From an uncultured bacterium (GTDB lineage Bacteria; Patescibacteriota; Patescibacteriia; UBA9570; XYC2-FULL-38-9): DNA of 64,000 nt. Below the pieces are notes generated by a model. The model was given only the letters and a program-made list of their open reading frames with translations, was not told where the DNA came from and made no database searches. The stretch spans positions 117,571 to 181,570 of the forward strand of contig CALKUP010000001.1 in NCBI GenBank assembly GCA_937996685.1, in the 5' to 3' direction. Shown here piece by piece: positions 1 through 53,899 of the stretch; the first letter of the stretch is position 1; every line of letters starts with the position of its first letter. Position numbers and translations under genes: made by a program.

Positions 1-2
1 TT

Positions 3-455
3 TTGCCTGCACTGGCCGGCCTCCTGAATGTCGAATGTCAGCGAGTGCCGGCAAGGACTGCGTCGTCGCTGCGCTTCGTGATCGACTTTGACTACGCTGT
101 CACGGCCGGTGAGATCAACCGTGTTTTCGCGGATTTCGCGCAACATAACCCGGACTTGATGCACTTCGAACCGATCCCTGACGATCCTCAAGACAAGTCG
201 CTGTGGAGGCACAGTGGTCACTGCGTCGATCAGCGGTTCTGCGTCTACGTCGACGGACGTTTGACGCAGGTGATACGCCAGGGCAAGAGCGTGGTTGTTA
301 CGGCCTTTTATGACAACCGCGTGGGCTATACGTGGCAGGCGCTCCGCGTCGCCGACTTCTGGGCGGGCAAGCGGCTGGAGCTGGAGGGGCGTGGACTCGC
401 TCTCGAAGAGGTCGGACAGACCTACCCCAGTGCTCGTTCTCAACAACGAGAATAG
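3..455 (+). CDS. Divergent GAPDH-like protein, C-terminal part (5'-truncated by window edge); GC-rich islet A
   Basis: LPALAGLLNVECQRVP...VTAGEINRVF...VVVTAFYDNRVGY parallels GAPDH LPELxGKLxGxAxRVP...VTxEEVN...VKVxAWYDNExGY. Confidence 0.65.
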   Translation: MPALAGLLNVECQRVPARTASSLRFVIDFDYAVTAGEINRVFADFAQHNPDLMHFEPIPDDPQDKSLWRHSGHCVDQRFCVYVDGRLTQVIRQGKSVVVTAFYDNRVGYTWQALRVADFWAGKRLELEGRGLALEEVGQTYPSARSQQRE

Positions 456-482
456 TCACTGCTTCTCAACGAACCGTACCCT

Positions 483-559
483 CTCGGAGGCGATAGACAT
501 GCAACACACAGGTATCAACCCTGTACACATGTTAATCGCTTTCGAGACGCTTTTCATTG
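483..559 (+). repeat. 77-nt structured repeat, copy 1, downstream of islet A
   Basis: Matches 1097-1173 except at 2 positions; folds as CTCGGAGGCGAT/ATCGCTTTCGAG, GACATG/CATGTT, ACAGG/CCTGT. Confidence 0.95.
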
Positions 560-693
560 TGAATAATCATTGATTGTTCATAGCGAATAGTGAAATGGTC
601 TCTATATAATGAACACAATGAGGCTGAATATATTGCCTTGTTTATATTAACAAAACACTGTATGTTTTTTATAGATTGTACCTTGGAGGTAGC

Positions 694-1074
694 GTGAAGC
701 AACCGACTGTGGATGAGTGCCAGTGGGCAATCCGGATGTTCAGCTGTAAGGAGTCTGATCGCTCGAAGCAGAAATGGCAGGAGCTCTTCCGCTGGTTCGA
801 GGAGGTGACGGATCAGTACAGGGGAGATCAAGAAATGGCCGAATGGGGGGAAAGGATCGCACGGTCCCTCCATCTGGAAGAAGGCCTGACTGAGCACCGC
901 CTCTGGCTCAAGATCTGTCAGGTGCTGTTGGCTAGAGCTGAAGAGTACTGGAAGGCTTTTGATGAAGCTAACCAGGCGTATCGGGGTAGTCCGCGGCGAA
1001 GGCTCCGGGATCAGTTGGGTCCCGGAGGTCGGGTCCTCCGACTGAATCAGATGTGGGAGCTGCTTAACAGGTAA
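694..1074 (+). CDS. Hypothetical helical protein; GC-rich islet B
   Basis: ORF 676..1074; GTG at 694 preceded by GGAGG (685-689); GC-rich codons. Confidence 0.7.
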   Translation: MKQPTVDECQWAIRMFSCKESDRSKQKWQELFRWFEEVTDQYRGDQEMAEWGERIARSLHLEEGLTEHRLWLKICQVLLARAEEYWKAFDEANQAYRGSPRRRLRDQLGPGGRVLRLNQMWELLNR

Positions 1075-1096
1075 AAGATACGCAGCAACACGTCCC

Positions 1097-1173
1097 CTCG
1101 GAGGCGATAGACATGCAATACACAGGCATCAACCCTGTACACATGTTAATCGCTTTCGAGACGCTTTTCATTG
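1097..1173 (+). repeat. 77-nt structured repeat, copy 2, downstream of islet B
   Basis: Near-identical to 483-559; starts 23 nt after the stop codon. Confidence 0.95.
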
Positions 1174-1216
1174 CGGATAATGCTGTATTATCCTTAGTGA
1201 AATGCGAATAGATGAC

Positions 1217-10779: not shown

Positions 10780-12609
10780 ATGAGTACATTTGAACAGCGA
10801 CGAGCGACACCAGTTGGTGAGTCTGCGTCATCTCCTGAAGCGGTTGTTGCTATTCAAAAAGGTTTGCAGCAAGTGCGTGAGATTGAAAAAGCGATTATTG
10901 ATGCGCGGACAGAGGATCAAACAAGTGATATTTCAGGTTTTGCGACTGAATTAGAATCAATCGCCGAAACAGCCGAGAGTCTCTTTGTGTCTGTGGCAGC
11001 TCGTGGGGCATTAGAGCATGTGGTTGCAAATGATATCCCAGCGCTCCGTTTTTTATATTTTAATGCAGGGGACCGAAAGGGGAAATTTCTTGCGACGGCC
11101 AGTGATTATCAAGGTCTTGCGGAGGAGGGTGTGGTTGTTGGAGGAATGTATAATGGCGCAACAGAAGCGTATACGTTGAAAACGTTATTCGATGATCCGC
11201 GTGTGTTGCCGTTTCAAGGCGATCGCTCAACTGAAGAGTGTGTGTTATTGTTTCAAGAAATGCAGCGCCCATTGGTTCGTCGATATCTCGAGAGTCAATT
11301 GAATGTGCGGTTTGCTGATTTGAATGTGCGCGCGCAGTTGCAATGTATTGAGTATTTAGTGAGTGGTGACCGGCAGCTCATAGAAGCACTGTCAACAATT
11401 ACACATCGAGACGGTCTTGAAGCCGCTCAGTTTTTGCAATTATTTTTTTCTTTAACAGAAAGTGTTGCCATGGCTGTGCCGATTATTGAGGCTGGCAGAA
11501 CACTTCCAGTGTCAGAATTGAATGACATTGCCCGCGGATATAACGGTGCAATGCGTGGAATTGAAGCGATTGAACAACGGATTTCCGATGCAATGCATCT
11601 GAAAAATCAGGCAGATGCTTCTGCTGTTGACCGAGTTGATACACGACGTGTTGCGCAGGCTTGGGTGCGTCGTGCAAATCGAGCTCTGCAAAAAAGCTTG
11701 GGAGAACCGGCGCATGTGACGCAGTTATTTCAAGGGATTGAGCGTGATGCCTTCTTTTTTTCAGCACTGCTCACTGAAACACTAAAGCAACAAGCTGGTG
11801 ATTTTTCTTTTGAAGATTTTGTCGGTGTTTCATATGAGCAAATTGATGGCGCAGTTCTTGCGGCAGACGAGATGGGTCTCCGAGATCAATGTCTCGCGAT
11901 TGCTCGAGAGCATTACGCGAAAGCGTCACCAGCGCTGGTTGAGCGATTGCAAGCATTATTATTTCCGCAAGACGAAGCAGGTCAGACGCGTCTCGAACAA
12001 AATCAATTTTCATTTGTGTTACGCAACGGCCGGCTTGAAGCCTTTTTGAGAGCGCAGCCAGCAGCGGATGAGAGTGTGTTTGTCGCAGCGCTGCAAGTGC
12101 ATCCGACGCTCCAAGGTGCGGGCGTTGGCGAAGCACTGCTTGATCGAACAGTTGTGCAATTTGCGAAAGAGCGGCTGGTTCGCGGAACCGTTGTTCCTGA
12201 AATCCAAGCAGGTGTGCATTATGTTGAAACGCTCGGCAATACATTAACTGGTTTTACTGAACCACAGGCAACCGGAACGCCATACGGGTGGTTCACAATG
12301 GAGTTAGATTTACGGCCAGATGCCGCTCGCTATGTATTGCAGTCACCTGAAAAAACATCAGATGTATTAGAGGCTGAATCACGTATCAATCTTGATGAGG
12401 ACGCGATCGCAGACATTCTTACAGAGCGTCCGCAGTATGTTGTGATGCAATACGCAATGCAAACTCCAGAAGATATTCGTGTAATGACAGATCGTGTGCG
12501 GCAGATGTTAGAGACAGGGGAATATCGTGTTGTGCGGATGTTTGGGAGCGCTGCAGATGCAACGCAACGGCTATACGGATTTGAGCGTGTCCCACAAAGC
12601 GAGAAATAG
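10780..12609 (+). CDS. Protein with C-terminal GNAT acetyltransferase domain
   Basis: VHPTLQGAGVGEALL (Q/RxxGxG acetyl-CoA motif A); ATG 10780 just after the upstream stop. Confidence 0.7.
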   Translation: MSTFEQRRATPVGESASSPEAVVAIQKGLQQVREIEKAIIDARTEDQTSDISGFATELESIAETAESLFVSVAARGALEHVVANDIPALRFLYFNAGDRKGKFLATASDYQGLAEEGVVVGGMYNGATEAYTLKTLFDDPRVLPFQGDRSTEECVLLFQEMQRPLVRRYLESQLNVRFADLNVRAQLQCIEYLVSGDRQLIEALSTITHRDGLEAAQFLQLFFSLTESVAMAVPIIEAGRTLPVSELNDIARGYNGAMRGIEAIEQRISDAMHLKNQADASAVDRVDTRRVAQAWVRRANRALQKSLGEPAHVTQLFQGIERDAFFFSALLTETLKQQAGDFSFEDFVGVSYEQIDGAVLAADEMGLRDQCLAIAREHYAKASPALVERLQALLFPQDEAGQTRLEQNQFSFVLRNGRLEAFLRAQPAADESVFVAALQVHPTLQGAGVGEALLDRTVVQFAKERLVRGTVVPEIQAGVHYVETLGNTLTGFTEPQATGTPYGWFTMELDLRPDAARYVLQSPEKTSDVLEAESRINLDEDAIADILTERPQYVVMQYAMQTPEDIRVMTDRVRQMLETGEYRVVRMFGSAADATQRLYGFERVPQSEK

Positions 12610-13332
12610 CGATTTGTGCATTTGCGCGATATGTTCGTGGTGAATCATTGCCGCGGCTGGGGTGTTCGTGTGCAAAACATAAAATGCAACTGTGTCGTTG
12701 TAAATTTCAACTGGTGTGACAAACGGGTATTTTTCCGCGTCTAAAAATTTGCAGGTCGTGTATTCTGGGTTGATTTGTTTCGCGAGCTCTCGAGATTCTG
12801 GCGTGTCTGTGAAAATAATATATTTATGAATCTTCTTCGCAATGCGTTGTTTCATATATTCCGCATTCAGCTCCTCAGCAAAGGCGTTAATGGTTTGGCT
12901 ATTCGCAAAGGTGTAAATAGTATCTTTGGCTTGGAGTGAATCAAAGAGCGCTTCTTTCATTTGCTCTGGGCCTTCATAAAACCGCATGCCTGGTTTTCCG
13001 AGGAGGGTATTGTAATTTCCGGTCAGCTCCCGAATCGTTTCATTCATTTCGCGCACTTGCAGAGCAGTGGACCGTTCTTTTTCTGTAATAAGAGCTGCGA
13101 GATTTTGCGGATGACTACTGCGGTAATAGGCGACACGCCCATCTTTTCGGTGCTCAACTAACCGTTTGGCGCTGAGTTTTTGCAAGGCATCATAAATATT
13201 CGCACGACTCAAAGCAGTCGCTTTTTGTATATTCGGAACAGTGAGCTCGCCCTTATCTTGGAGGAGGAGATAGATAGTGGTTTCCGCAGACGAGAACCCG
13301 AATTCCGTTAAAATAGTGATTGTAGATAGCAT
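12571..13332 (-). CDS. TrmB-family transcriptional regulator
   Basis: N-terminal wHTH (GFSSAETTIYLLL...LSRANIYDALQKL) plus effector domain (VEIYNDTVAF); TGGACA-N17-TATACT promoter on - strand at 13340-13368. Confidence 0.85.
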   Translation of the reverse strand: MLSTITILTEFGFSSAETTIYLLLQDKGELTVPNIQKATALSRANIYDALQKLSAKRLVEHRKDGRVAYYRSSHPQNLAALITEKERSTALQVREMNETIRELTGNYNTLLGKPGMRFYEGPEQMKEALFDSLQAKDTIYTFANSQTINAFAEELNAEYMKQRIAKKIHKYIIFTDTPESRELAKQINPEYTTCKFLDAEKYPFVTPVEIYNDTVAFYVLHTNTPAAAMIHHEHIAQMHKSLFLALWDTLKSV

Positions 13333-13442
13333 AGAATGGAGTATAGCAGAATAATCTTGATTTGTCCAATAATTATCAGACAAATGATTGCTTTAATATT
13401 AGCAAAATATATCAAATATATACACATCTGTCGACAATAGTA

Positions 13443-13620
13443 TTGACAAATTCATCATATCTTGTCATACTACGTAGTCTTGTGAATCACGGTTTACAAG
13501 ATTGCACATTTCAATAAGAACAGTTTTGTCAAAAAGGTTGCAGGACAGAAGTTGGTGACGCTCACCATTTTCCGCCCTGCAACCTGATGTCTCAGGCTCT
13601 GTATGGGATTTGGAGGTCAC
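13443..13620 (+). promoter_or_regulatory. Promoter plus structured leader of islet C (hairpin, boxA-like, hairpins, SD)
   Basis: TTGACA-N17-CATACT; hairpin 13477-13502; TGCACATTT 13503; AGGTTGCAGG/CCTGCAACCT stem; GGAGG 13612. Confidence 0.7.
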
Positions 13621-14025
13621 ATGACCAACACCGCCACCCCGATGTCCGCATTTGAGACCGTCAGCACCACCGAGGCGCCCGCGTGCGCGTCGCATCCCTT
13701 GACCGAGGGGGTGGTCCCCCACAACGCCAGCCCGCGCGAGCGCGCGTGGGCGGACTGGGTTCTCACCCAGGCCTTCCGCGCGGAGTTCCCGGCCGAAAAG
13801 GGCTGCGGGCAGGGCTACATGAAGAACTTGGGAAATCCCGGGTCGCGCGCGGTTCCGACAAGTGTCCGGACCGTATCTTCCCCGGGCATGACGCAGATCC
13901 GCCTGCTGACGGCGGAAGAGGTCGCTGTCCTGCGTGTCATCTGTGACATGCACGGTTACCCCAGCACCTCAACCAAGGTGCTGGACCCGGGCACCGAAGA
14001 CGCTCGGATCGAGATCCACTACTAG
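13621..14025 (+). CDS. Hypothetical protein; GC-rich islet C
   Basis: ORF 13603..14025; ATG 13621 after GGAGG; very GC-rich. Confidence 0.7.
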   Translation: MTNTATPMSAFETVSTTEAPACASHPLTEGVVPHNASPRERAWADWVLTQAFRAEFPAEKGCGQGYMKNLGNPGSRAVPTSVRTVSSPGMTQIRLLTAEEVAVLRVICDMHGYPSTSTKVLDPGTEDARIEIHY

Positions 14026-19422: not shown

Positions 19423-19806
19423 ATGCGCACTGTTTCCTTCCTTGAGCGCCATGATCGCAAGCTTCTCAGCCTCGAAGATCGGCAGTACCTGAGCCAGGTG
19501 TATGAAAATACAAGTACCGCTAGCGATGATTTTTTGCTCGGTTGTATACAGGCTGCGGCTGAAAAGAACGGCCTTAGTTTTGAGCAGGCGGTTGATGTCT
19601 TTGACCGGATAGTTGCCTGGTATAATTACGTAAACATCGACGGGGATGAGCTTGCTCAGATGATCGGAGGTGACATCCTGCGCCTTCTCCGAGAATCTGA
19701 ACAGGAACTCAAGGAGGAAGCCACTACCCTGCGGTGTGTCTTCGGCATGTTCGGCATCTGCGTCGTGTTGTTTGTCGTTTGGTTCATCCGGGTGGTGATT
19801 GGCTAG
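19423..19806 (+). CDS. Hypothetical protein with C-terminal TM helix; moderately GC-rich islet D
   Basis: ORF 19390..19806; ATG 19423 after GGAG; hydrophobic C-terminus. Confidence 0.7.
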   Translation: MRTVSFLERHDRKLLSLEDRQYLSQVYENTSTASDDFLLGCIQAAAEKNGLSFEQAVDVFDRIVAWYNYVNIDGDELAQMIGGDILRLLRESEQELKEEATTLRCVFGMFGICVVLFVVWFIRVVIG

Positions 19807-29100: not shown

Positions 29101-29187
29101 ATGCCGTTTGGTCGGTCATTGGCAGAATTGACTGTGGTTATCGTAGTTCTGGTCGCCTTCGCGATGTACTGCGTGTCTCGGCCATGA
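29101..29187 (+). CDS. 28-aa hydrophobic peptide with prepilin-like N-terminus; islet E1
   Basis: GGAGG SD; MPFGRSLAELTVVIVVLVAFAMYCVSRP; below the ORF-track cutoff. Confidence 0.5.
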   Translation: MPFGRSLAELTVVIVVLVAFAMYCVSRP

Positions 29188-29315
29188 GCGGCGGGAACAT
29201 TCCGCATGGACTTGGCGACATCATCCTCGGGGTGGCTGTCTTCGTAGTTTTCGTGGCGGCGCTTTCTTGCGCTGGGTTCATGTATATGGTTGGGACTTTC
29301 TTCGGATTGTTCTGA
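29184..29315 (+). CDS. 43-aa membrane peptide; islet E2
   Basis: ATGA overlap with E1; MSGGNIPHGLGDIILGVAVFVVFVAALSCAGFMYMVGTFFGLF. Confidence 0.5.
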   Translation: MSGGNIPHGLGDIILGVAVFVVFVAALSCAGFMYMVGTFFGLF

Positions 29316-37599: not shown

Positions 37600-38184
37600 A
37601 TGATCCGTTTTGTTTCCGTAGCGCTGTTTTTCTGGCTCACCCTCTACAGCGCCTCTCCTGCGTGGGCTGGCGGTGGGTGGGGTATTCCAGTGAACCCGGA
37701 ACTCTGCGCTGAAGACGGCACGCCGATGGATGCTGATGGCGACGGCATCTTCACCCACATTGAAGACAACGACGGTGATGGCGTCTCGGTCTGCTACGAA
37801 GGCAACCACCTTGTGTGGGATCAGCCGGGTTGGGTGCAGTTCATGACCGCGAACTTCACGCGGATTCAGAACAAGCCGGGTGACCTTCAGTTGTACATGC
37901 TGCAGCACATGTACACGCCCTACCTCCTGGACTGGGTATATTTCTTCCAGGAGATGACAACGGTCCGGACTCCTGGAGGCGGTCTCGGTTATTCGTTTGC
38001 CGATGTCGAAGGAGATTGTGACGACAACGATCCGAACCGCTTTCCCGGCAACTGGGAGGTGATGTTCGACGGCGTCGACGCTGACTGCAACCCGATGAAC
38101 GAGGTCTGCATTCCTGCGATTGTTCCACCTGGTTGGCCGGGGTACGCCTGGGCTGTTGGGATGAAGTATTGGGACTGTCCGTGA
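37600..38184 (+). CDS. Secreted protein with DxDxDG and MopE-like DCDDxDP metal-binding motifs; GC-rich islet F
   Basis: Signal peptide ending PAWA; DADGDG, DNDGDG, GDCDDNDPNRFPG..DGVDADC; GGAG 37590. Confidence 0.8.
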   Translation: MIRFVSVALFFWLTLYSASPAWAGGGWGIPVNPELCAEDGTPMDADGDGIFTHIEDNDGDGVSVCYEGNHLVWDQPGWVQFMTANFTRIQNKPGDLQLYMLQHMYTPYLLDWVYFFQEMTTVRTPGGGLGYSFADVEGDCDDNDPNRFPGNWEVMFDGVDADCNPMNEVCIPAIVPPGWPGYAWAVGMKYWDCP

Positions 38185-38310: not shown

Positions 38311-38344
38311 TACAGAATATGTCAGATCTGATACACACACCCTC

Positions 38345-38878: not shown

Positions 38879-40506
38879 AACCGATTACACCCCAACATTC
38901 ATCATTCGAAGAGCAGCTCACTCGTGCATTCCATGAGCAGAGTGTTCCTGAGCACAAAGCACATCGTCGTGCGGTGTTTCAGCGCTTGCAAGAAGCAGTT
39001 GCTGTTGAACACATATCGTACTCAGAGCGATTCCGTCACTGGGTGCGTCGTCGGTTTTTATGGGTGTCTGTATCCGCTTCAACGCTTGCGCTGGCTGGTA
39101 TTCTCGTTGTGTTTTTCGGCGCACCGGTTGCTGAGCAGTACATTGCTCAGCGCCAAGGAAATACAAATTCAATTTTAGACGCGCTGGCACCTCAAGAATT
39201 ACTTGCGGAGTCAATTCAAAATACATTTGCTGCAAACGATGGCATTCGTCATGTAATGTTTCATACGGTTCGTGAAGATGTGAACACTGACAAGACAACA
39301 TCAGAAGCAAAAGAAGTGACAGCGCGCACTGATCAGGAATATTATATTGCGCCAGATGCGTTTACTGGTTTTTTGCATAAAACAGGACCAAGCGTGCAAC
39401 AAGAGAAGAGTTATCGAATGACAAAGCTAAGCGCTGATACACAATCGATTGAAAATTGTGTCATCAACATCAATATGAAAAATGCTCAGTCAATAAAAAG
39501 TGCCAATGCAGAGTTATCTGGTGAGAATGTATGTGGGTTAATGGGGATTGAAGACTATGCAGGTTTTGCAGAAACACAACCAGCGCTTGATATCCAAGAT
39601 CTTTCATACAATACAGACCTTGATAGCGAGCAGATGTCATTTACAACCGCAGAGCCAATTGATCCTAAACAACTTGGTATTTTGATTGCGGAACCGTCTT
39701 TTGTGAAATATATTTCAGAGTTTATTGATGCACAAAATAATATTGCCTTTGCTCCAATTGCATTGTCTCCACTCGGGAATGTATCTGGAGCAATTGCCGA
39801 CCCTGAATGGAATGTGCCGGTGAATGGTCGATACAAACAATCCTTCGTGTATATGTTAGATGGGCGCTATGCACATGACACCTTAACAGAAGCAACGCAA
39901 ACGCCGGTCCGCATTTTTTCTGAAGTGCAATTACAATTTGTGCAGCTCAACACAGCACTTCTTGAAGCAACGACGCTTCAAGAAAACGGCTATGATCCAA
40001 AATTATTTTCAGCTGCATCTCAAGTGTTTCAAATCAAGTTTTCTGATGAATGGAAACTTGAGAGCGTGAATGCGCTCACGCAAACACCTGAGGACATTGC
40101 GCAGTTTAACGCACGTCGGTTGGCAACACGTAAAGAAATTTTTACAAACAATTCAGGTGAAACATTTTTTAACTACATTGCAGGAGGGTCGGCAGTGTTT
40201 GCGCAACTCCATGATGTGAAGCCTCGGGTAGAGGGGAATGAGTATGTGTATAGTGTCCAGCAGGAGTGGAATCCAGATAATCCTGATATGCATATGATTG
40301 GAACAACAGAGGTGCGTGTTGATAGTCAGACTCAGCTGTTAACGGCAATTATTGAGCGGTATGACTACCCAGAAACACAGCAAGCAACGGTCTACACAAC
40401 AACCTTCGATGCACTGAAAACAACCACAGATAATACAGACACGTTTTTTTCTGAGAAGGCATGGAAAGAGCGCGCCAAGGAGATTATAAATGACTCACGG
40501 TACTAG
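38875..40506 (+). CDS. Putative single-pass anti-sigma factor 1
   Basis: ATGA-coupled to the sigma gene; short N-terminus, TM helix, large external domain. Confidence 0.7.
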   Translation: MKPITPQHSSFEEQLTRAFHEQSVPEHKAHRRAVFQRLQEAVAVEHISYSERFRHWVRRRFLWVSVSASTLALAGILVVFFGAPVAEQYIAQRQGNTNSILDALAPQELLAESIQNTFAANDGIRHVMFHTVREDVNTDKTTSEAKEVTARTDQEYYIAPDAFTGFLHKTGPSVQQEKSYRMTKLSADTQSIENCVININMKNAQSIKSANAELSGENVCGLMGIEDYAGFAETQPALDIQDLSYNTDLDSEQMSFTTAEPIDPKQLGILIAEPSFVKYISEFIDAQNNIAFAPIALSPLGNVSGAIADPEWNVPVNGRYKQSFVYMLDGRYAHDTLTEATQTPVRIFSEVQLQFVQLNTALLEATTLQENGYDPKLFSAASQVFQIKFSDEWKLESVNALTQTPEDIAQFNARRLATRKEIFTNNSGETFFNYIAGGSAVFAQLHDVKPRVEGNEYVYSVQQEWNPDNPDMHMIGTTEVRVDSQTQLLTAIIERYDYPETQQATVYTTTFDALKTTTDNTDTFFSEKAWKERAKEIINDSRY

Positions 40507-40513
40507 AATTGAT

Positions 40514-40541
40514 AAAAAAGCCCTGAAATATGGGCTTTTTT
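40514..40541 (+). terminator. Intrinsic terminator
   Basis: AAAAAAGCCC-loop-GGGCTTTTTT. Confidence 0.8.
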
Positions 40542-40550
40542 GGTATTCAT

Positions 40551-40574
40551 ACGTACTTTTGCATATCCATCGTT
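40551..40574 (+). promoter_or_regulatory. Candidate ECF promoter, copy 3
   Basis: ACGTA-N14-TCGTT; leader hairpin begins at 40581. Confidence 0.7.
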
Positions 40575-40660
40575 GTAGTGTATGCAGTCGTGATTCGGCG
40601 ATTGTGTACCTTGAGATCACCTTTCAGCGACCAAGATCGCTCATTGCAACTGGAGTTCTC

Positions 40661-41188
40661 ATGCTTCCCATGTTTTTGGCATTCCTCGCAAACCACACCG
40701 ACCCGCAGATTTTCCAGGTGGTAGGCGACGCGCTTGTCACCGCTCCTTCGGATGGCTGCCTCATTGAGCAAAATGTCTGGGTCGACCTCGACGGCGACTT
40801 CCACTTCCAGCATTGGGAGGATCGGGACCTCGACGGCTACGGAAACTGCTACGACGAGCAGGGCCGAGTTGCCTGGATGTTTCCGGGTCTCGCTCGTGAG
40901 TTCACCGTGAATTTCGGTGACTACATGAACCACGCTGCGCAGGCACGTGCGCATTGGCCGTTGGGTCTCGCGATGCTCCCGATGAATGCTCCGGAGCAGT
41001 TCAATCTGCCCTGGACCATGCCGGGTTGGAGCTTCTGGTTTGATCCGATCACGCATCGGCAATACTTGAACTTCCAGGAAGCGATGGCGGGAGATTGTGA
41101 TGACAGCGATCCGAATCGATTCCCGTATAACCAGGCTGACGTGCCGGGTGACGGGTTCGACGAGAACTGCAGCCCCTTCGATGAGTAA
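40661..41188 (+). CDS. Paralog of 37600-38184 (MopE-like motif); GC-rich islet G
   Basis: DLDGDFHFQHWEDRDLDG, GDCDDSDPNRFP..GDGFDENC; GGAG 40652. Confidence 0.8.
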   Translation: MLPMFLAFLANHTDPQIFQVVGDALVTAPSDGCLIEQNVWVDLDGDFHFQHWEDRDLDGYGNCYDEQGRVAWMFPGLAREFTVNFGDYMNHAAQARAHWPLGLAMLPMNAPEQFNLPWTMPGWSFWFDPITHRQYLNFQEAMAGDCDDSDPNRFPYNQADVPGDGFDENCSPFDE

Positions 41189-41367
41189 AAAGCCTCTCAT
41201 GTGAGAGGTCAGAGTGACACGCTCTGTGATCCGTGCCCTGTTGCGCTTTGCTATCAATAGTTGAGCGCAGCAGATTTTCTTAGTACAAATCCGCGTTCAT
41301 GTTTTTAGAATGCATATTGTACACACCATACTCTGCAGAGTATACTTCACATAATTAACCTATCAGC

Positions 41368-41877
41368 ATGACGCTTGAACAAATCGCCGCGCTATTCGAC
41401 ACGTATCACAAACCGATTTATCGTTTTGTGTATTTACGTGTGAATCACATGGAAACAACCGAAGATTTGGTCTCTGCGATTTTTGAAAAAGTCGTTCGGC
41501 ATTATGATGCGCTTGCGCCAAAAAATGACGAGCTCGCATTTCGCAAATGGATTTACACCATTGCACGCAATACAGTGATCGACTACTATCGCACACAAAA
41601 GCAGACAGACGATATCGCGGATTATGATGTCGTTGACACGGCGCAGATGCCAGACATTGCACTCGACACCGCGATGAATCTGGAAATGCTGCAAAGCCAT
41701 CTTGGGGCTCTGACTGACCGACAACGTGAAGTGCTCTTGTTGCGATACCAGTCCGATTTTTCAAATGTGGAAATTGCGGAGATGCTCGACATTGATCAAA
41801 AAACAGTCAGCAGTATCTTGAGTCAAGCGATCAAACGTTTAAAAAACAGTGTTCAATCCGTTCAATCAATTGTGTAA
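41368..41877 (+). CDS. ECF sigma factor 2
   Basis: IYRFVYLRV, EDLVS, WIYTIARNTVIDYYR, LTDRQREVLLLRY. Confidence 0.92.
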   Translation: MTLEQIAALFDTYHKPIYRFVYLRVNHMETTEDLVSAIFEKVVRHYDALAPKNDELAFRKWIYTIARNTVIDYYRTQKQTDDIADYDVVDTAQMPDIALDTAMNLEMLQSHLGALTDRQREVLLLRYQSDFSNVEIAEMLDIDQKTVSSILSQAIKRLKNSVQSVQSIV

Positions 41878-41883
41878 TTTTTT

Positions 41884-43527
41884 ATGAAACACCAACCATC
41901 ACAATTTGAAGAATCACTCGAGCAGCTATTACAGGCTACTCCGATTCCAGAACGAGCAGACCACACTGCAGAGTTGCGTGCACGCGTGTTGAACGACTAT
42001 CGTGAACGCCAGGTCCGTTATGCTGAACCAAAATTATCTTTTATGAATACAGTATTTCCACGTCTCTTTCTTGCAACCAGCGGCGCCGTTTCTGTCCTTG
42101 CAATAGGATTTGTCATTTTCAACCAACCGGTTGTTCAAACACAAGTCGCAAAACTGCGCGGCAATAGCAATGTAAACACTCCAACACATTCACTGCTATC
42201 TCAGCTGTCACCGAAAGAAGTACTAGCTGATTCACTAGCCGCAACAATCGGCGAGTTGAATGACACATCACAGTCGCACTATGTACATATGAAAACAACG
42301 TCAAAAAGTACAGATGGCACGATTGACTCGACAATTGATTTTCAATCATGGAAAGAGGGGCTTAATGTGCGCGTCAAAACAACGGATACAGATCACGTGA
42401 ATAATACAACTGGCATGACAACGCAACTCACTTCGTATGAGGCTGACGAAACGTCATGGAATTGTGTTGCTGATACAACCGGGACGGTGAGTGGCCCAGG
42501 TTACGATAATAATTCAGGTGTCTGCTTTCACTATGGAGCTCCTCAAGAATATAATCGTCAAGTATATACAAGTGCTCCAAGTCTCAGTTTAGAGAGTGTA
42601 TCCGCAACAGCTGCCCGTGCTGGAGACACGGTCGGTCCGACACAGCGAATCACAGTGACATTTCGTACAACGCAGCCATTATCGAATGAGGCGCTGATTG
42701 AATCCGTCAATTCTGATATTGCTGATTTAGGTGATGTCGTTTCCGGTGGTAACTTTTTTAACCATTCAGATGGATTGCTGCCGACAGAATATAATGCAAA
42801 AAAAGTGGGCGATCAATATGAGTACCGTGTTGTTATGGATCAAGCGTATGATATGCGAGGCGATGCTCCGACTGGATCTCAGACTTCGAAAGATACGCGA
42901 CGAAATTACATTCAAATTCTTGATGGCAATGCACATAGTCCGGTCTATCAAGTGAATATTGATACTGGTGATATCACGGAATTAACCACCGTTCAATTAC
43001 AACAATTAGTGTCCGCACAGCAACAAGCAAAGCGCGAAAAAGCACAACAGCAAGCAGGGCAAGTCACGCTGGCATCTGGATATGATCCATATGCTGATTT
43101 GCAAAACATCTATACAACCATGGAAAAAAATGGCCAAATTATAGATAGTGCAGAAGTGCAAGGTGATGATACAACTTTGTTGAAAGTTCATTATCGATAC
43201 ACAGAAATATACGGACCGCAGATTCCACAAGAAGAGGTTGATCGTCGTCTCAAAGAATCTCCATATACTGAAGTGAATATTTTTGTGGATTTAAAGACAA
43301 AAGAAGTGGTGCGTGTTGAGTATGTATTGCTGCCTTGGACACAAAACACATATACCACAGAGATTATTGAGTCAGCGTCCGTGGGCCCAGAAGAGTCAGG
43401 GCAATTGCTTGGTCCAGATCCGTTTACAATCGATACATGGAAAAACGAAACCCGTGATCTCTATAGCGAGCTCTATCCAGATCGTGGTGAGATTCAATTC
43501 ACCATGAAAGATATCGGCGAGTATTAA
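41884..43527 (+). CDS. Putative single-pass anti-sigma factor 2
   Basis: Same architecture as 38875; shared L(A/S)PxExLAxS motif after the TM. Confidence 0.7.
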   Translation: MKHQPSQFEESLEQLLQATPIPERADHTAELRARVLNDYRERQVRYAEPKLSFMNTVFPRLFLATSGAVSVLAIGFVIFNQPVVQTQVAKLRGNSNVNTPTHSLLSQLSPKEVLADSLAATIGELNDTSQSHYVHMKTTSKSTDGTIDSTIDFQSWKEGLNVRVKTTDTDHVNNTTGMTTQLTSYEADETSWNCVADTTGTVSGPGYDNNSGVCFHYGAPQEYNRQVYTSAPSLSLESVSATAARAGDTVGPTQRITVTFRTTQPLSNEALIESVNSDIADLGDVVSGGNFFNHSDGLLPTEYNAKKVGDQYEYRVVMDQAYDMRGDAPTGSQTSKDTRRNYIQILDGNAHSPVYQVNIDTGDITELTTVQLQQLVSAQQQAKREKAQQQAGQVTLASGYDPYADLQNIYTTMEKNGQIIDSAEVQGDDTTLLKVHYRYTEIYGPQIPQEEVDRRLKESPYTEVNIFVDLKTKEVVRVEYVLLPWTQNTYTTEIIESASVGPEESGQLLGPDPFTIDTWKNETRDLYSELYPDRGEIQFTMKDIGEY

Positions 43528-45333: not shown

Positions 45334-46764
45334 ATGGCAAATCCAGAAGGAAAAGGACCACGTGCGCAGGTGGCAAAGCCAGTGCAAGTAGAAAAAATAA
45401 AACCAGCTGATTTGACGCATCCTGATTGGGATCGTTTAGACTTAGGTGAAGCATGGAATCAACCAACTGTTGCCGATGAAGTCGCTCAAGCAGATAAAAT
45501 GTTGACACAAGCTCGAGAGACTCTTCGAGATCGACGCCAAGATGAAAAAGTAGTTGCTCGCGCATATGCATCAGTAGATGCGAAGTCGCGTCAGGCTGCA
45601 GTTGGAACAACAGAATCATTTGATGTTGGAGATTTTCCTGATGATAGACCGCTTCCATTACTCGGTGAAGAAGATGATGAAACAGAGGATACATTTCAAT
45701 CGTTAGATGATGGTCCAGTTATTGACTTACCTGAGAAACGCAAAGCAAAAGATTTGCGTAAGCAAGGGCCAAAAACAGAATTACGAGAACCGCCAACACG
45801 AGAAGAGCGTGCAGCAGCTCGTGTATTTGAGATGCCAGCGTCGTCAATTGTAGAGCCTGCTGCAGTTGCGCCGATGCCAGAAGTTGCTCCACGCGCCTCT
45901 GAAGTCGCTTCTACTGAATTAGAGTGGATGACCGTTGAAGAAGCGGCGCCACTATCACAGTCTTTAGGCTTGTTTGATCGAGTAAAACAGGCAGCGTCTC
46001 AATTTACAAAACGTTGGAGTCGACGCTTTGCAGTGATTGGTGCATTGCTCGCACAGCCAGCAGCAGAAAAGCCGATTACAATGCCACAACCGCAAGAACA
46101 CATTGATGCAGTGCCTCAAGAAGCAGCGCCTGCGCCTGTTGTTGCGGAGGTCGCTCCAGTAGTACCAACACCAGAAGTTGTTCCAGTAGTGCCTCAAGCG
46201 CCTGAAGTGAGTGTGACAGTTCCAGTTGAATTGCCAGCCCAAGGCGTTGTGAGCATGCCGCGTGTTGACACTGCTTCATCAGCGCCAATAAAGACAACAT
46301 TGCCTGCAGCTGCTGCGCATATTGATGTTCGTGCGCCTCTACCTCAGGCTTCAGAAAAGCCACAAGTAGCGCCGAGTCCTGTAACAATCCCGCAACCTGC
46401 ACCTGATACAAATCCAGCAACCCGACCGACAGCTGATGCTGCTGCTCCAAAGCCGCCAGTCGTTGCGCCGGAGGTTCCAGCAACTCGTGAAGAATTGGCA
46501 AAACAAATGAATGCAGAATCACATGTTGATCAACTGTCTCCAGCAAAACAAATTGCCTATCTTGATAGCTTGTTTGATCAAACCGACGCGTCAAAACTCT
46601 TTTTACGCTTGAGTCCAACAAAACGTTTAGAAGTGTCTCGTGATTCACGTGGTGAATTATTTATTAAAACAGCGCGAGAAGGGAAGATTGAGCCATTAAC
46701 AGAAGAGGTCGTTGAAAAGATTGGAAAAAACTTGGCAGCATTGCGATATACCGTCGGTCGATAA
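45334..46764 (+). CDS. Hypothetical Pro/Ala/Glu-rich protein with central hydrophobic helix
   Basis: RRFAVIGALLA followed by a Pro-rich linker. Confidence 0.75.
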   Translation: MANPEGKGPRAQVAKPVQVEKIKPADLTHPDWDRLDLGEAWNQPTVADEVAQADKMLTQARETLRDRRQDEKVVARAYASVDAKSRQAAVGTTESFDVGDFPDDRPLPLLGEEDDETEDTFQSLDDGPVIDLPEKRKAKDLRKQGPKTELREPPTREERAAARVFEMPASSIVEPAAVAPMPEVAPRASEVASTELEWMTVEEAAPLSQSLGLFDRVKQAASQFTKRWSRRFAVIGALLAQPAAEKPITMPQPQEHIDAVPQEAAPAPVVAEVAPVVPTPEVVPVVPQAPEVSVTVPVELPAQGVVSMPRVDTASSAPIKTTLPAAAAHIDVRAPLPQASEKPQVAPSPVTIPQPAPDTNPATRPTADAAAPKPPVVAPEVPATREELAKQMNAESHVDQLSPAKQIAYLDSLFDQTDASKLFLRLSPTKRLEVSRDSRGELFIKTAREGKIEPLTEEVVEKIGKNLAALRYTVGR

Positions 46765-46821
46765 CATTGACTTTTTCGAATTTTTGTGGTATGAATTGAA
46801 GTAATAACTTCTCTTATTTTT

Positions 46822-48837
46822 ATGTCATCCTACGAGAATCCTCCAAAACCAAAATCACAAGTAGATACAACTGACGGTTTAACTCCGGTGCAACGTGCAA
46901 AAGCTGCTCGAGAGGCAGCGGCGGTAACATTGGCTGATTCAAAGAACAGAATGCCTATTGCGACAGCGTATGAAGAGAATTCTGCTATTAATCATAGAGT
47001 TGAAACAAATGAAGCTGCGGCAATTGCTGCTGAAGAGGTTATTCGTGAAGCGGCAAAGCGTCGAGAAAGTGCACGTCGTGAAGCTGAGCTGGCAGCACGG
47101 TCTCGTGTTGAGATGGAAGAGTCAAAGATAGAGTGGCGAAAATGGATGGACGGTTTAATTGCCGAAGCATCAGTGGATGATGCACAATTTGTGTCAGGTC
47201 TTGAAAACATCCAAGCAGGAAATGATACGCATAGAGCAGAGCAGTCTAAAAAAAAAGCGGATCCGCTCGCTGATTTTGATATTCCAACACAAGATGTTGA
47301 TGTGTCTGAAGCAAAGGCTGTTGAGACAAGTTTTGATGATGTGCCAGATGGTTTTATTGAATTATCAAGTGAAGGAGATTTGGAAACAGGAGATAATGAC
47401 TATACGATTTCTGAATCGGATGCACCCGCGTCTGAAGTCACAGATGAGTCGATGACAGTATCAGCATCTGTTCTAGACACAACGCCAGGTAGGCAGCGAT
47501 TTAATCGTGCGCTTACTAAAGAGGAAGTAAAAAAAATTCTTGAGCAAACCGCAACAGATCCACGGTATCGTGAAGCGACAAATCCACGCGTGCCAAAAAA
47601 AATAAGCACAGCCGATGTGTCATCTGTCGCGAGCACTGCTCAAACAGAATTACCTCCAACGGAGCTGATTCCAGCGGTTGTTGATCCAAAAAAACCAACT
47701 CCAGCGACTGAGAAAAAAGCGCCAAGCCGAATTCGTGGCTGGTTGAAAAAAATCGGATTGTTATTTGGTATTGCTACGGCACTTGATAGTGCAGTGCAAC
47801 AACCACAAGAATATTCAACTGCGAGTGCTGATGTAGAAAACGCAACAACGATAATGGTTGATGACAAAGGCGTGCAAGAAGTTGAGCAAGTAGCCGATGT
47901 TGATTCAGTCGCGGAAGTGGCGCAGTCGTCATCTAATGAACAAGCGCCAGAAACAAATCTTGTGCGAACCAATATTGAAACAGGAGAAGGTGTGTCACAA
48001 GCGATGCTTCGCTTAGGATATGATATTTCTGATATTCAAGCGGCGTTGCAGTTGCCGGTAACCATTGGTTCTGAAACAAAAACACTGGGTGATGTATTTG
48101 TTGATGCGAAAGGCGGCGATCTTGGAATGACGATTACTGAAAATCCAGAAGGCGGAGTTGCAAGTGTTGATTTTTATTCCGTTGATGGTGATAAGACGCT
48201 AATGCCTGCTGCTGAGCTTTCAAGTGTTCTGCATTTTGTTGGATCTTCAGAGGCCGTGCCGCAAACGCAAGAGCCTGCAACGACAGTGGCGCCACAGGCA
48301 AGTGAACCTATGATGATCACAGCTCCTGCTACTACTGCAGTTGTTGATCGTGCTCCAGTGCAAGGAACGTCTGTTGCTGTTACTCCAGATATTCCACCTG
48401 CTCCAGTGATCAAGTCTGCTGATGCGCCAATGCTAGATCCAAAATTGCGTGAAGCTGTTATTGTGAAAAAACCAGAAGATAATCCAAATGATGATGAACA
48501 ACAGGTAGATACACCGGCTCAGATAAAAATGGACGGACCGGACCGGCGTTCATTTATGAATCCGGAACGACAACTTTCGGGACTTGAGGATATACTTGAT
48601 CAGATGGCGCCGGGAACAGAACTATATTATTCACCATTAGTATTCCGTATTCCAGAAGAAGAGGGTGAGGTGCAAATTCGACACATCGCTGATGCTCAGC
48701 ATTATTACAAAGTAACGCCGCTGTTACTTGAAACACTTGGGTTTGACTATCGCAAAGACTACGAAGATAAACGATTGAGTCGTGCATCATTCCGTGACAT
48801 TGTTGCTGGGCAAGGCCTTGATCCAATTCCGCGATAG
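46822..48837 (+). CDS. Hypothetical acidic protein with central hydrophobic helix
   Basis: WLKKIGLLFGIATAL; possible LysM-like IETGEGVSQ segment. Confidence 0.75.
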   Translation: MSSYENPPKPKSQVDTTDGLTPVQRAKAAREAAAVTLADSKNRMPIATAYEENSAINHRVETNEAAAIAAEEVIREAAKRRESARREAELAARSRVEMEESKIEWRKWMDGLIAEASVDDAQFVSGLENIQAGNDTHRAEQSKKKADPLADFDIPTQDVDVSEAKAVETSFDDVPDGFIELSSEGDLETGDNDYTISESDAPASEVTDESMTVSASVLDTTPGRQRFNRALTKEEVKKILEQTATDPRYREATNPRVPKKISTADVSSVASTAQTELPPTELIPAVVDPKKPTPATEKKAPSRIRGWLKKIGLLFGIATALDSAVQQPQEYSTASADVENATTIMVDDKGVQEVEQVADVDSVAEVAQSSSNEQAPETNLVRTNIETGEGVSQAMLRLGYDISDIQAALQLPVTIGSETKTLGDVFVDAKGGDLGMTITENPEGGVASVDFYSVDGDKTLMPAAELSSVLHFVGSSEAVPQTQEPATTVAPQASEPMMITAPATTAVVDRAPVQGTSVAVTPDIPPAPVIKSADAPMLDPKLREAVIVKKPEDNPNDDEQQVDTPAQIKMDGPDRRSFMNPERQLSGLEDILDQMAPGTELYYSPLVFRIPEEEGEVQIRHIADAQHYYKVTPLLLETLGFDYRKDYEDKRLSRASFRDIVAGQGLDPIPR

Positions 48838-48908: not shown

Positions 48909-49469
48909 CTACATGCCAAGCGCAAGAATTGCCTGTGACCAAGCAAGTGCGACAACAATAAAGACTGTCACAACAGTTGCAAGAACATACAGTTCGCCGA
49001 GTCGTGTGATTCTGTGCATGGCTGGGCTGTGAACGATTTGTTTTGCGGCTGTTTCGACTTGGAGTAATTCACGTTTCATTGTCACGGTAGCTGTTTTAGC
49101 AGGGGTGCGACGAGACGCTGTTTTTTTCACCGCTTTTTTTGCAGTAACCTTTTTCGCAACAGGCTTTTTGGCAGCAACTTTTTTTACAGTACGAGCTTTT
49201 TTTGTTTGCACAGCCTTTGCTGCTGTTGTTTTTGTGCTACGCTTTTTTGCTGAAGTTGCAGTTGTAGTAGATTTTTTCTTCGTTGTTCCGGTAGTCGTTT
49301 TCTTCACCGCTTTTTTTGCAGTAACCTTTTTCGCAACGGGTTTTTTGGCAGCAACTTTTTTTGCGCGCACTGTTTTTGTCATTGGCGCACTCGCAAGCGA
49401 CAACACTTCATCCTCGAGTGTGACTGTGCGCTTTCGATTTTGTTGTTGTTTTGGTTTTTGTACCGCCAT
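48909..49469 (-). CDS. Histone H1-like Lys/Ala-rich protein with C-terminal TM helix
   Basis: KKVAAKKPVAKKVTAKKAVKKT twice (DNA repeat about 49126-49185 and 49303-49362); hydrophobic tail. Confidence 0.75.
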   Translation of the reverse strand: MAVQKPKQQQNRKRTVTLEDEVLSLASAPMTKTVRAKKVAAKKPVAKKVTAKKAVKKTTTGTTKKKSTTTATSAKKRSTKTTAAKAVQTKKARTVKKVAAKKPVAKKVTAKKAVKKTASRRTPAKTATVTMKRELLQVETAAKQIVHSPAMHRITRLGELYVLATVVTVFIVVALAWSQAILALGM

Positions 49470-51735: not shown

Positions 51736-51767
51736 AGTTCAAGCAGTGTAGCACAGTTTTGCTTTTC

Positions 51768-51783
51768 CCGAAAAATGCCCGAA
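51768..51783 (-). promoter_or_regulatory. TTCGG-N6-TTCGG direct repeat upstream of pcrA
   Basis: + strand reads CCGAA-AAATGC-CCGAA. Confidence 0.7.
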
Positions 51784-51789
51784 TAGGCA

Positions 51790-52011
51790 TTGACTTTTTG
51801 CCCAAAATATGGTAACTAATAAGGAGTGCGGAATGCAATTTCGCATTTTTGCCCTTTTACAAAAAACAGGATTGTTGCAGTTGGTTGACTCTAATATTAG
51901 TCAATAATCAATCAACCGCAGCAATCCTGAATATCGCATGCATCTGACAGATCCGTCGGGTGTGTGCAACGCATCGAACTGCCCAGCATTGACTGGGTTT
52001 TGGAGTCTCTC
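51790..52011 (+). promoter_or_regulatory. Promoter candidate plus structured leader of islet H
   Basis: TTGACT 51790 (weak -10); hairpin 51822-51850; TGCCCTTTTACAA 51850; GGATTGTTGC/GCAGCAATCC and GCATGCATCTGAC/GTCGGGTGTGTGC stems; GGAG 52002. Confidence 0.65.
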
Positions 52012-53835
52012 ATGATGAAGCTCATCTCTCGGAATGCCTTCGCGATCCTCTTCGTCACCCTCGCGGTGGCGTGCGGCTTTCTCCCTGATACGATCGGGGG
52101 AACCGGGCTGCACCCGGTCGCGGCCGACACGGTCGACACGACGGACGACGTCCGCACTGACGACACGCCGTCGTCGGACATCGTCGGTGTTCACACGACG
52201 AATACCAACGTCGGCAACACCGACACGGTCGACACGACGGACGACACCGACATCACGCCGGACACCGGCACGGACCTCCTCCCTGTCACCGGCGACACGC
52301 CGGCTGACACGGACATCGTCGACACGACGGACACGACGGACACGACGGACACGACCGAGCCCGTCGACACCGACGTGACGTGGTCCGAGACGGATCCACC
52401 CGCAGATGACCAGTTCCCGCCCTACGCGTTCGTAGGCTACGGGCACTACCAGTTCTGTGGCGACCCCGCGATCCCGTGGGAGCCCTGTCTTCAGAACCGG
52501 GTGGTCTACGGACGCCCGCTCCAGGAGCGTCCTGCCGCCTGTGTTCCTGGAAACCAGTACGCTCCTGGGGAGCTTTCGAGCGACGTGCTCGTCTGCTTTC
52601 TGGACTACTTCCGCGGCCAGATCCACGGTGTCATCTCTGTTTTTAACCCGGCGACGCACGCCTGGTCCGACCTGCCGAATGGCGGGCCTACCAACTTCGT
52701 GCAAGCGGGACTCGTCGAGCAGCGTGGTGCTGTTCAAACGAGTCAAGTCAGCTCGTTCCTCTTTGCTCAGCTCGAGCCGGGGAGCGAGCAGATCTCGCTG
52801 ATCGTCCGGAGCCCCAACGGCCCGCTCATGCGGCGCGGGGCAAACGGCGTTTGGTCGCAAGACCGCGCCTTCTTCACTGCCTGGCAGGCCGCCGGCATGG
52901 CGCAGATGAGCGAGTCGATCGTCCGGGACTTTGACCGCAACGGTCTCCCGGACATCGGGATGATGCGCTGCCTCCAAGGCAACTGCGACCCGGTGATTTT
53001 CTACCAGACGGCGCCTGGCGCCTGGCAGAGCTCAATGAACGTGACCCGCATCCCGTACAAGTCTTCGGATGTGTACGAGTGGGACGCGATTCAGGACTCT
53101 GCAACCGGCGCTTGGACGCTCGTCGCTGCTGGCGGTTTCACCGACATGCAGCGCGCCGGCTCCAGCGGCATCTTCGTAGAATACGGGACCGGGCCCGACG
53201 GCTTCCCGGCGTACGTCGAGGCCAATGGTACGAATGCCGCCGGAATGGCCGGAATGGGTGTGACCCATTTCGACCCCCGCGGCATCGACGCCGCTGGCAA
53301 CTCCACGCCGTTCCCGGACGGTCAACCGGAGATCATCGTCTCCAGTCAAACCCAGTGTCCAGAGATGTTGCAAAGCCTCTTCGGCTGGGCTGGGGTGGAT
53401 TCGTGGGTCAACCTGACCCCGAACTACTCCAACTGGATCCAGCAAGGAGGGCGCTTTCGCCCTGGCTGCTGGGAAGACGCGACCCCGGAAACTGAGGATC
53501 TCGCCTGGGGCGTGGAACTCGTCCTTGAGGACTTGCTGCTCGTCGCCAAGGGCGACGACGGCCGAGTTCTTCCGACGGGTCACTGCGACCGAGCCGAGTG
53601 CCCTCAGGACGGCGAGCCGATCATCGGCTACAAGCCGTGGCACGGACGCTTCTGGGCGTATCCGCTCGGGCGCCTGCAGTTTGTCGACCCCTTGGGGAAC
53701 GACATTCTGCTGGGCAACCGGCGGACGCTCGACGTCCACTACGTCACCGGCGCCGACGGCGTCACCCGCACCGTCGTCGTGACGGGTGGCACCTGGGAAA
53801 ACGGCAATCCTGAAGTTTGGCTGCTCGAGGAGTAA
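52012..53835 (+). CDS. Putative lipoprotein with Asp/Thr-rich repeats and an FG-GAP/VCBS-like motif; GC-rich islet H
   Basis: Lipobox-like LAVA-C; DTTD repeats; DFDRNGLPDI; strong GC3 bias. Confidence 0.8.
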   Translation: MMKLISRNAFAILFVTLAVACGFLPDTIGGTGLHPVAADTVDTTDDVRTDDTPSSDIVGVHTTNTNVGNTDTVDTTDDTDITPDTGTDLLPVTGDTPADTDIVDTTDTTDTTDTTEPVDTDVTWSETDPPADDQFPPYAFVGYGHYQFCGDPAIPWEPCLQNRVVYGRPLQERPAACVPGNQYAPGELSSDVLVCFLDYFRGQIHGVISVFNPATHAWSDLPNGGPTNFVQAGLVEQRGAVQTSQVSSFLFAQLEPGSEQISLIVRSPNGPLMRRGANGVWSQDRAFFTAWQAAGMAQMSESIVRDFDRNGLPDIGMMRCLQGNCDPVIFYQTAPGAWQSSMNVTRIPYKSSDVYEWDAIQDSATGAWTLVAAGGFTDMQRAGSSGIFVEYGTGPDGFPAYVEANGTNAAGMAGMGVTHFDPRGIDAAGNSTPFPDGQPEIIVSSQTQCPEMLQSLFGWAGVDSWVNLTPNYSNWIQQGGRFRPGCWEDATPETEDLAWGVELVLEDLLLVAKGDDGRVLPTGHCDRAECPQDGEPIIGYKPWHGRFWAYPLGRLQFVDPLGNDILLGNRRTLDVHYVTGADGVTRTVVVTGGTWENGNPEVWLLEE

Positions 53836-53865
53836 ACCTCGTACTACTGCAACCAGCTTCACACA

Positions 53866-53899
53866 CCGCGGAAAACTACATGGTTGACCGCGGTTTTTT
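53866..53899 (+). terminator. Intrinsic terminator after islet H
   Basis: ACCGCGG-loop-CCGCGGT followed by T tract. Confidence 0.75.

Follow-up and report, generated by a model that had tools for sequence, protein, structure and literature searches.

Why should single GC-rich genes, each led by a Shine-Dalgarno (SD) sequence, lie scattered among the AT-rich, SD-less genes of a small bacterial genome? This question is raised by a stretch of 64,000 nucleotides (nt), here called the window, from contig CALKUP010000001.1 of an uncultured bacterium of the candidate phyla radiation (CPR; Patescibacteriota), in which eight such islets (A to H) are found. The source genome (G000) comprises 1.14 Mb in 18 contigs, with a completeness of 98.7% and a contamination of 1.3%, the window being G000:C1:117571-181570, and the bacterium is presumably host-dependent. 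We describe a class of about 70 scattered, self-contained GC-rich genes, most of them SD-led, and consider the chances about even that they encode messages made by the parasite and read by host-type ribosomes. What points to host ribosomes is that distant relatives keep SDs after their own rRNA has lost the matching sequence. Whichever explanation of the class holds, two gene classes are maintained within this one small genome.

GC-rich islets of the window

The eight islets named in the initial annotation are all real open reading frames (ORFs) at the starts given there, E being in fact two overlapping small ORFs. They are listed below with adjoining features, GC content, GC content at third codon positions (GC3) and the state of the site in a congener, G001, of which a syntenic region of 100 kb was compared; G002 is a further relative, 81% complete.

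1..455, + strand: islet A, 3' part of a divergent GAPDH paralogue of 365 amino acids (aa) that starts at G000:C1:116928; SD-led; GC 59.3%, GC3 0.70
480..594, + strand: trailer of A, with long hairpins that lack a T-run, repeat copy 1; one copy in G001, 82% over 68 nt
694..1074, + strand: islet B, 126-aa orphan with GTG start and GGAGG; GC 56.7%, GC3 0.67; not found in the syntenic region of G001
1094..1208, + strand: trailer of B, direct-repeat copy 2, 86% over 115 nt
13621..14025, + strand: islet C, 134-aa orphan with GGAGGT; GC 66.2%, GC3 0.85; not found in the syntenic region of G001
19423..19806, + strand: islet D, 127-aa orphan with hydrophobic C-terminus; GC 51.3%, GC3 0.60; not found in the syntenic region of G001
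29101..29187, + strand: islet E1, 28-aa hydrophobic peptide, GGAGGTGAG; leader (28935-29099) with a 67% match to G001
29184..29315, + strand: islet E2, hydrophobic peptide of 43 aa, with an ATGA overlap with E1; GC 53-54% and GC3 0.61-0.67 for E; similar ORF directly 3' of the SD in G001, end and trailer (29287-29329) 93% identical
37600..38184, + strand: islet F, 194 aa, with signal-peptide-like N-terminus and PF11617 (MopE-type) repeat, a 35% paralogue of G; GC 57.4%, GC3 0.70
40661..41188, + strand: islet G, 175-aa paralogue of F with PF11617-like repeat below cut-off; GC 57.6%, GC3 0.72; empty site in G001
48909..49469, - strand: histone-H1-like (PF07382) gene, SD-led and of native composition (GC3 0.33); SD also in G001
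52012..53835, + strand: islet H, predicted 607-aa lipoprotein with lipobox-like motif and Asp/Thr linker; SD-led; GC 64.5%, GC3 0.82

The islets are indeed GC-rich (51-66%), and the 32 native-class genes of the window have a GC3 of 0.27-0.54; the native average is 43.7% GC, not about 40% as first estimated. GGAG(G) lies 4-8 nt upstream of all seven starts visible in the window, as previously described, and the start of A, 642 nt ahead of the window, has GGAGGG. Also in agreement with the initial annotation, the motif is confined, among the 32 native genes, to the H1-like gene at 49469. Its statement that no target duplication is present does not hold, given that a 115-nt direct repeat flanks B. 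The duplicated hairpin trailer (480-594 and 1094-1208) is a possible recombination point or mRNA end structure. No integrase occurs among the listed genes of the window, on which no integrase family search was run, and the islets are flanked by core genes, without phage context.

Islet A retains the catalytic Cys and His and has an altered NAD-binding motif; a native, SD-less GAPDH is also present, on C5. The FG-GAP-like resemblance of H is only a lead. Islet G lies between two gene pairs (38303-43527), each made up of one of two tandem extracytoplasmic function sigma genes and a long gene of unassigned family. Around C (10780-19163), large genes (609, 795 and 814 aa; one with several helix-turn-helix hits) are unmatched in the syntenic region of G001.

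A second gene class throughout the genome

Genes were called with a purpose-built codon-model caller, so that counts are approximate. A coupled, bimodal distribution of GC3 and SD, anticipated by the initial annotation, was found genome-wide. The 980 genes of at least 80 aa fall into two GC3 modes, at 0.383 (90.5%) and 0.676 (9.5%), with a Bayesian information criterion of -2037 for two modes vs -1573 for one. On the nine large contigs, with starts picked without SD preference, an SD motif is present at 40 of 68 starts with GC3 ≥0.6 vs 14 of 851 with GC3 <0.5 (Fisher p ~1e-39); internal in-frame start codons, taken as background control, have it in 4.3-6.3% of cases. These contigs, from which all class counts were taken, hold 61 GC-rich genes with an SD, 12 GC-rich genes without a called SD, 36 intermediate and 868 native genes. 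The small contigs were left out as possible contamination; four of them (C8, C11, C12 and C17; 49-56% GC, without the SD pattern) are perhaps contamination or mobile DNA.

Most GC-rich members (53 of 73) have no GC-rich neighbour. The median upstream gap is 236 nt in the class vs 46 nt in native genes, and TGA stops are used by 31/61 class vs 76/868 native genes. Lipobox-like starts occur in 6/61 vs 4/868, and strong trailer folding (z < -2) in 40/49 class vs 38/80 sampled native genes. The sigma-70-type promoter motif TTGAC-N17-20-TAnnnT was found upstream of 12/55 class and 50/255 native genes, and these equal rates rule out that the islets rely on a separate kind of promoter. A -10-like peak lying 12-14 nt ahead of native starts suggests that many native messages are leaderless. 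Rfam gave no match on the window, the duplicated trailer of A and B included, or on the leader of A, and 20 islet loci yielded only rRNA, tRNA, tmRNA and an intron; a known riboswitch or RNA family in the leaders is thus rejected as far as Rfam goes. The two genes of a kup pair (L016:3673-6048 and 14423-16648) have leaders 85% and trailers 99% alike. On C2 (L008:780-3360), two unrelated ORFs have a common 256-nt upstream region (87.5%).

A local mutational or gene-conversion regime, or relaxed AT selection in weakly expressed genes, might also raise GC content, with GGAG being read by a protein or a small RNA. Such a regime would fit the leaders and trailers of the class, which are GC-raised as well, and fourfold sites near saturation (0.64 of 0.68 in A and 0.62 of 0.64 in H, vs 0.52 of 0.74 in native genes), values that alignments at about 30% identity inflate. 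However, intergenic spacers between native genes have 39-44% GC, so that no GC-rich neutral state is visible, and the isolation of most members speaks against a regional effect. The SD motif lies at canonical spacing, and a CsrA-like motif was not found with a crude pattern. We regard this explanation as very improbable.

Conservation of the class and maintenance of its GC content

Islets A, E and H have the same native genes on either side in G001, and are GC-rich and SD-led there too. Chimeric assembly is unlikely in view of this agreement with an independent genome, and was rejected given the synteny in G001 and G002. The G001 orthologues of A (29-32% identity; GC3 0.85) and H (28-36% identity; GC3 0.84) both have an SD; the median identity of native orthologues is 76%. 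As far as the ATG, the leader of A (125 nt; L002:800-930) matches its G001 counterpart at about 87%; the two fold alike, with one compensatory pair. Two AT-rich orphan genes of the window (45334-48837) are 31% identical to their G001 orthologues, and fast evolution is therefore not limited to the GC-rich class.

Native fourfold sites provided a neutral ceiling: a gene with 100% fourfold GC at the split would have 0.70 now. The values of H (0.82 and 0.80; p 0.003 and 0.009) and of purA (0.85 and 0.95 in G000 and G002; p < 1e-6) exceed this ceiling, and decay toward the genome value is rejected for both genes. Between these congeners purA is 85% identical, and its C-G swaps (49/164) match those of native genes (514/1900).

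No near-identical donor was found for A, F or H. Islet A has one relative at 73%, followed by ordinary GAPDHs at 29-38%, and its viral relatives reach only 23-35%. For H, the 8000 candidates scored included three relatives at 49-60%, and a phage search gave no match; F matches elsewhere mainly via its 30-aa repeat. The closest named relative of purA (82%) is labelled Myxococcota and lies on a 3-kb contig. This relative, together with the five islets without a match in G001, indicates that transfer is the origin of at least some members.

These data bear on the alternative of imported cargo. Donors that are GC-rich and use SDs, either hosts or GC-richer CPR, would supply single genes again and again; these would be swapped at fixed sites, GC and SD being leftovers renewed by replacement and not selected. 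High turnover is what this alternative predicts, and five of the eight window islets were not found in G001, where slot F is occupied by an unrelated GC-rich, SD-led gene. ORFs have diverged to 30-36% behind leaders that are 87-95% identical, different ORFs are framed by common leaders or trailers, and both the Myxococcota-labelled match of purA and the lack of relatives for three of seven SD-led genes of anti-SD-less genomes (see Discussion) agree with it. However, the SD sits in the resident conserved leader and not in the swapped ORF, purA has diverged like a native gene and is still far above the ceiling, the searches for close donors of A, F and H (in phages for H) were negative, and F and G are paralogues inside one genome. 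Furthermore, G506, an anti-SD-less relative, has SD-led genes at genome-typical GC3, one of which keeps GGAGG across four genomes. We consider continued import, the leading alternative, improbable as an account of the whole class. Repeated single-gene transfer, which the initial annotation offered as a simpler alternative, does not, in a simple and recent form, explain A, H or purA and is retained as the origin of some members. GC-rich orthologues in relatives, which the initial annotation had proposed to look for, were found in the syntenic region of G001 for A, E and H and not for the other five.

The anti-Shine-Dalgarno sequence and rpsU as a control

The 16S rRNA of G000 keeps an intact anti-SD (tail GGATCACCTCCTTT), which rules out the loss of this sequence from the source genome, a point that the initial annotation had left for checking. 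In G000, rpsU (G000:C2:106676-106918; L008:3676-3918) has an extended SD (-14.3 kcal/mol). A strong SD (-10.8 to -16.6 kcal/mol) precedes rpsU in 11 of the 13 genomes for which a CCUCC tail was seen, and in 1 of 11 that lack it (Fisher p 0.0006; cross-genome p-values overstate, since kin are not independent). It is also present in five relatives of G000 with unseen 16S tails, the piece from G007 being a gene other than rpsU. This contrast implies that, when the anti-SD is lost, an SD used by the cell's own ribosome decays as well. It suggests a bS21-type SD autoregulation in CPR that tracks the anti-SD, a proposal that would stand even if a rival explanation of the class holds.

Among the matches listed, which are a sample, at least 16 genomes have a printed tail lacking CCUCC. 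Occurrences of AAGGAG-N5-10-ATG were compared with those of a control, AAGGAG-N17-22-ATG. The 16 anti-SD-less genomes gave 1382 vs 805 (1.72x; excess in 15/16), and 20 anti-SD-positive genomes of the same class gave 1570 vs 1068 (1.47x; excess in 19/20); the other 15 of the 51 genomes searched, namely G189, four whose tails are partial and ten belonging to other groups, do not enter these sums. The pattern is insensitive in G000 (57 vs 55), where the sites are mostly TGGAG or GGAGG. At called starts in sampled stretches, near- vs control-spacing matches were 5 vs 1 in G506, 4 vs 0 in G522 and 0 vs 0 in G509. In G506, which consists of one contig with one 16S gene, a strong SD leads 17 of 183 sampled genes vs 2 and 1 in upstream control windows, with a spacing peak at 4-9 nt. 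An orphan of G506 is syntenic in G560, G543 and G526 at 79, 64 and 59% identity, with GGAGG retained and the leader diverged. Moreover, the SD of a second-copy NDK is retained at 47% identity, whereas in five native NDK copies it is weak or missing.

It may also be proposed that own ribosomes with an exposed anti-SD, such as a bS21-lacking sub-population as in Flavobacterium, translate the islets, the SD offsetting the folding of GC-rich start regions in what would be a conditional regulon. The intact anti-SD and the extended rpsU SD of G000 favour this view, as do the folding of class start regions (-12.4 vs -5.7 kcal/mol), the occurrence of uppS and metK motifs only in the class, and the lack of the class in G185 and G189, which have no canonical anti-SD. 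A precedent has been shown in F. johnsoniae, according to the accessible part of the report (PMC9976891). However, the proposal fails for the 15 genomes that show an SD excess in spite of lacking an anti-SD, and leaves a GC3 of about 0.7 along entire ORFs without explanation. The precedent also requires an extended SD, whereas the class median is -9.1 kcal/mol and only 4 of 61 members reach -13. Translation of the islets by own ribosomes of this kind therefore appears unlikely to us.

In G189 (L060), the 16S tail is ACCGCCTT in place of ACCTCCTT, with CCGCC, and no matching variant SD was found in 283 of its genes. A variant SD pairing with a variant anti-SD was considered and rejected: G189 is without an SD-led class, the tail of G087 is canonical, and G100, G181 and G196 have CCUCC. 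Introns or insertions near the 16S 3' end mask the anti-SD from simple motif or model searches in at least seven genomes (L069-L078, L138, L141), and may inflate estimates of anti-SD loss. In G000, the 16S gene (G000:C15:154192-155665) is unlinked from the 23S-5S genes (L003:12911-16136), which are on a separate contig, and is followed by protein genes; a group I intron is found at L018:9437-9687.

Gene content

Of the 95 class genes listed, 60 were compared with Pfam, and most have no family. Assigned members include purA, metK, an IMPDH, Ham1, uppS, LOG, NhaB, two Kup and PF11617 proteins. The purA gene is GC-rich and SD-led in G000, G002 and G009. Its counterparts in two sister families, examined at 13 loci, are all AT-rich and SD-less, and purB is present in the three of these searched for it. 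In G000 and G002, purB was not found by Pfam, which was used because a crude motif scan had missed even release factors and its negatives are weak. GC-rich second copies accompany native GAPDH, IMPDH and LOG. G000 and its congener G001 share, at 36% identity, a gene that has kept a twin-arginine-like (Tat-like) start, and TatC was found in none of 12 family genomes. A dependence of lipoprotein processing on the host was ruled out, lgt being present and an LspA-like gene seen by eye. A VirB4-like ATPase occurs in all five genomes searched, including two without the class.

Discussion

Our analysis leads to the following proposal, in which every step from transcription onward is one that we infer from sequence. 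Islet mRNAs would be transcribed in the parasite from the same sigma-70-type promoters as native genes, and would enter the attached host, or host ribosomes would be drawn into the parasite. The bulk ribosomes of the parasite may be SD-blind, either because bS21 masks their anti-SD, as it does in Bacteroidia together with bS18 and bS6, or because the anti-SD has been lost; this blindness would also prevent the translation of imported host mRNA. If parasite translation is set against host-type mRNA, genes with host-type codons and SD are most simply seen as addressed to host-type ribosomes. The class may encode host-modifying proteins, namely nucleotide and S-adenosylmethionine enzymes, K+ and Na+/H+ transporters, lipoproteins and small membrane proteins. 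The route could be a cytoplasmic tube or a relaxase-less type IV secretion system (T4SS). GC-rich hosts were probably the first source of many members, which were later kept, duplicated or swapped at fixed sites.

A more specific form, rather doubtful at present, is that CPR export hairpin-capped mRNAs via the T4SS or a tube, so that host ribosomes make parasite proteins inside the host. These would be enzymes, transporters and envelope proteins; the parasite ribosome would not recognise messages of host type, and the host of any uncultured CPR genome could be told from the GC3 and SD of the class.

The suggestion of the initial annotation that these mRNAs are tuned for a foreign ribosome is thus upheld in part. 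In its favour, the class is coupled, partly old and maintained, and the SD is kept in anti-SD-less relatives while that of rpsU is lost; against it, the own 16S rRNA has an anti-SD and the five islets unmatched in G001 behave as cargo would.

The following observations weigh against host-type ribosomes as the readers of the class. With a full anti-SD in its 16S rRNA, the ribosome of G000 could itself read the islet SDs. B, C, D, F and G were not found in the syntenic 100 kb of G001. Decay is not rejected for A (fourfold GC 0.73 and 0.79) or the Tat-like gene (0.64), which are not significantly above 0.70 (p 0.39, 0.08 and 0.85), and replacement in place would reset the GC-decay clock. The Tat-like signal scores 13.9 in G000, below the TIGR01409 cut-off of 16.7, with no hit in G001. 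In the crude motif scan, uppS and metK motifs were seen only in the GC-rich class, and some members may thus serve the cell itself. The rpsU contrast has exceptions: G059 and G182 are anti-SD-positive without a scored SD, and G492 is anti-SD-less with one. In G506, SD-led genes are not GC-rich (GC3 0.47 vs 0.45), GC and SD being decoupled. G185 (34 vs 40) and G189 (22 vs 20) have a lost or altered anti-SD yet no SD excess, and the VirB4-like ATPase is present in both. When relatives were searched for seven SD-led genes from genomes lacking an anti-SD, three genes had no match, two were checked for an SD only at 91-97% identity, and two had diverged orthologues (47-79%) with the SD retained; no 16S tail was seen for G543, G526 or G650. 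In G087 (L143-L153), native genes are widely SD-led yet a GC-rich tail exists, which includes purD-, purE-, purF- and plsX-like genes, named by eye. Finally, RNA traffic runs only from host to parasite in the accessible text of the published work.

If the class is read by host-type ribosomes, a cellular organism would reprogram its host in a virus-like manner, a novel means of control of one bacterium by another and a case of mRNA-based effector delivery between bacteria. The relaxase-less T4SS and the loss of the anti-SD would acquire a role, and a simple rule would list candidate effectors in any CPR genome, in a radiation estimated at 8-15% of bacterial diversity in the available part of a recent preprint (10.64898/2026.06.21.733656). 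Codon usage of the class would predict the hosts of uncultured CPR. The rpsU contrast makes the question directly testable.

Comparison with known systems

No description of such a gene class was found in the literature searched, most subscription journals being outside the reach of the search. Phage auxiliary genes and morons are stand-alone units of promoter, leader, ORF and trailer that provide second copies of nucleotide or energy enzymes, with signals suited to host ribosomes. The islets resemble them as stand-alone units and as second enzyme copies that need host partners (purA without purB). Unlike phage genes, they lie singly in the chromosome of a cell with its own ribosomes, and no phage context was found. 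Genomic islets and integron cassettes show atypical composition, patchy presence and hairpin trailers shared by neighbouring units, features that all recur here. In contrast to them, H and purA show no GC decay, the SD is in a resident leader, and the genes have promoter motifs of their own.

The CPR parasite OT8 is described, in the accessible text of the preprint, as sending tubes into the host cytoplasm and taking up host RNA, with a codon usage complementary to GC-rich hosts (10.64898/2026.06.21.733656), and import has been proposed, in the part available, for the relaxase-less T4SS of Patescibacteria (PMC12102498). G000 likewise has a VirB4-like ATPase, tubes and RNA crossing being features of OT8. 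However, both sources, in their accessible portions, deal with import from the host, and contain neither a host-like gene class nor mRNA passing from parasite to host; the main text of the OT8 preprint has 0 hits for 'Shine'.

Tsurumaki et al. (2022) reported that CCTCCT, the anti-SD, has been lost in part of Parcubacteria (PMC9297842, accessible text), and this loss is confirmed here in at least 16 genomes. Their paper, in the text at hand, assumes that no SD helix forms in anti-SD-less lineages and does not mention an SD-led class, in contrast to what we describe. In F. johnsoniae, the anti-SD is present, native genes are SD-less and an obvious SD is confined to rpsU; this extended SD is used in Flavobacterium only by bS21-lacking ribosomes (PMC9976891, same portion). 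G000 resembles this SD-blind translation of Bacteroidia, given that its 16S rRNA keeps the anti-SD, its bulk genes are SD-less and its rpsU has an extended SD. It differs from Bacteroidia in that some 60 accessory GC-rich genes are SD-led, and in that SDs persist in CPR where the anti-SD has been lost.

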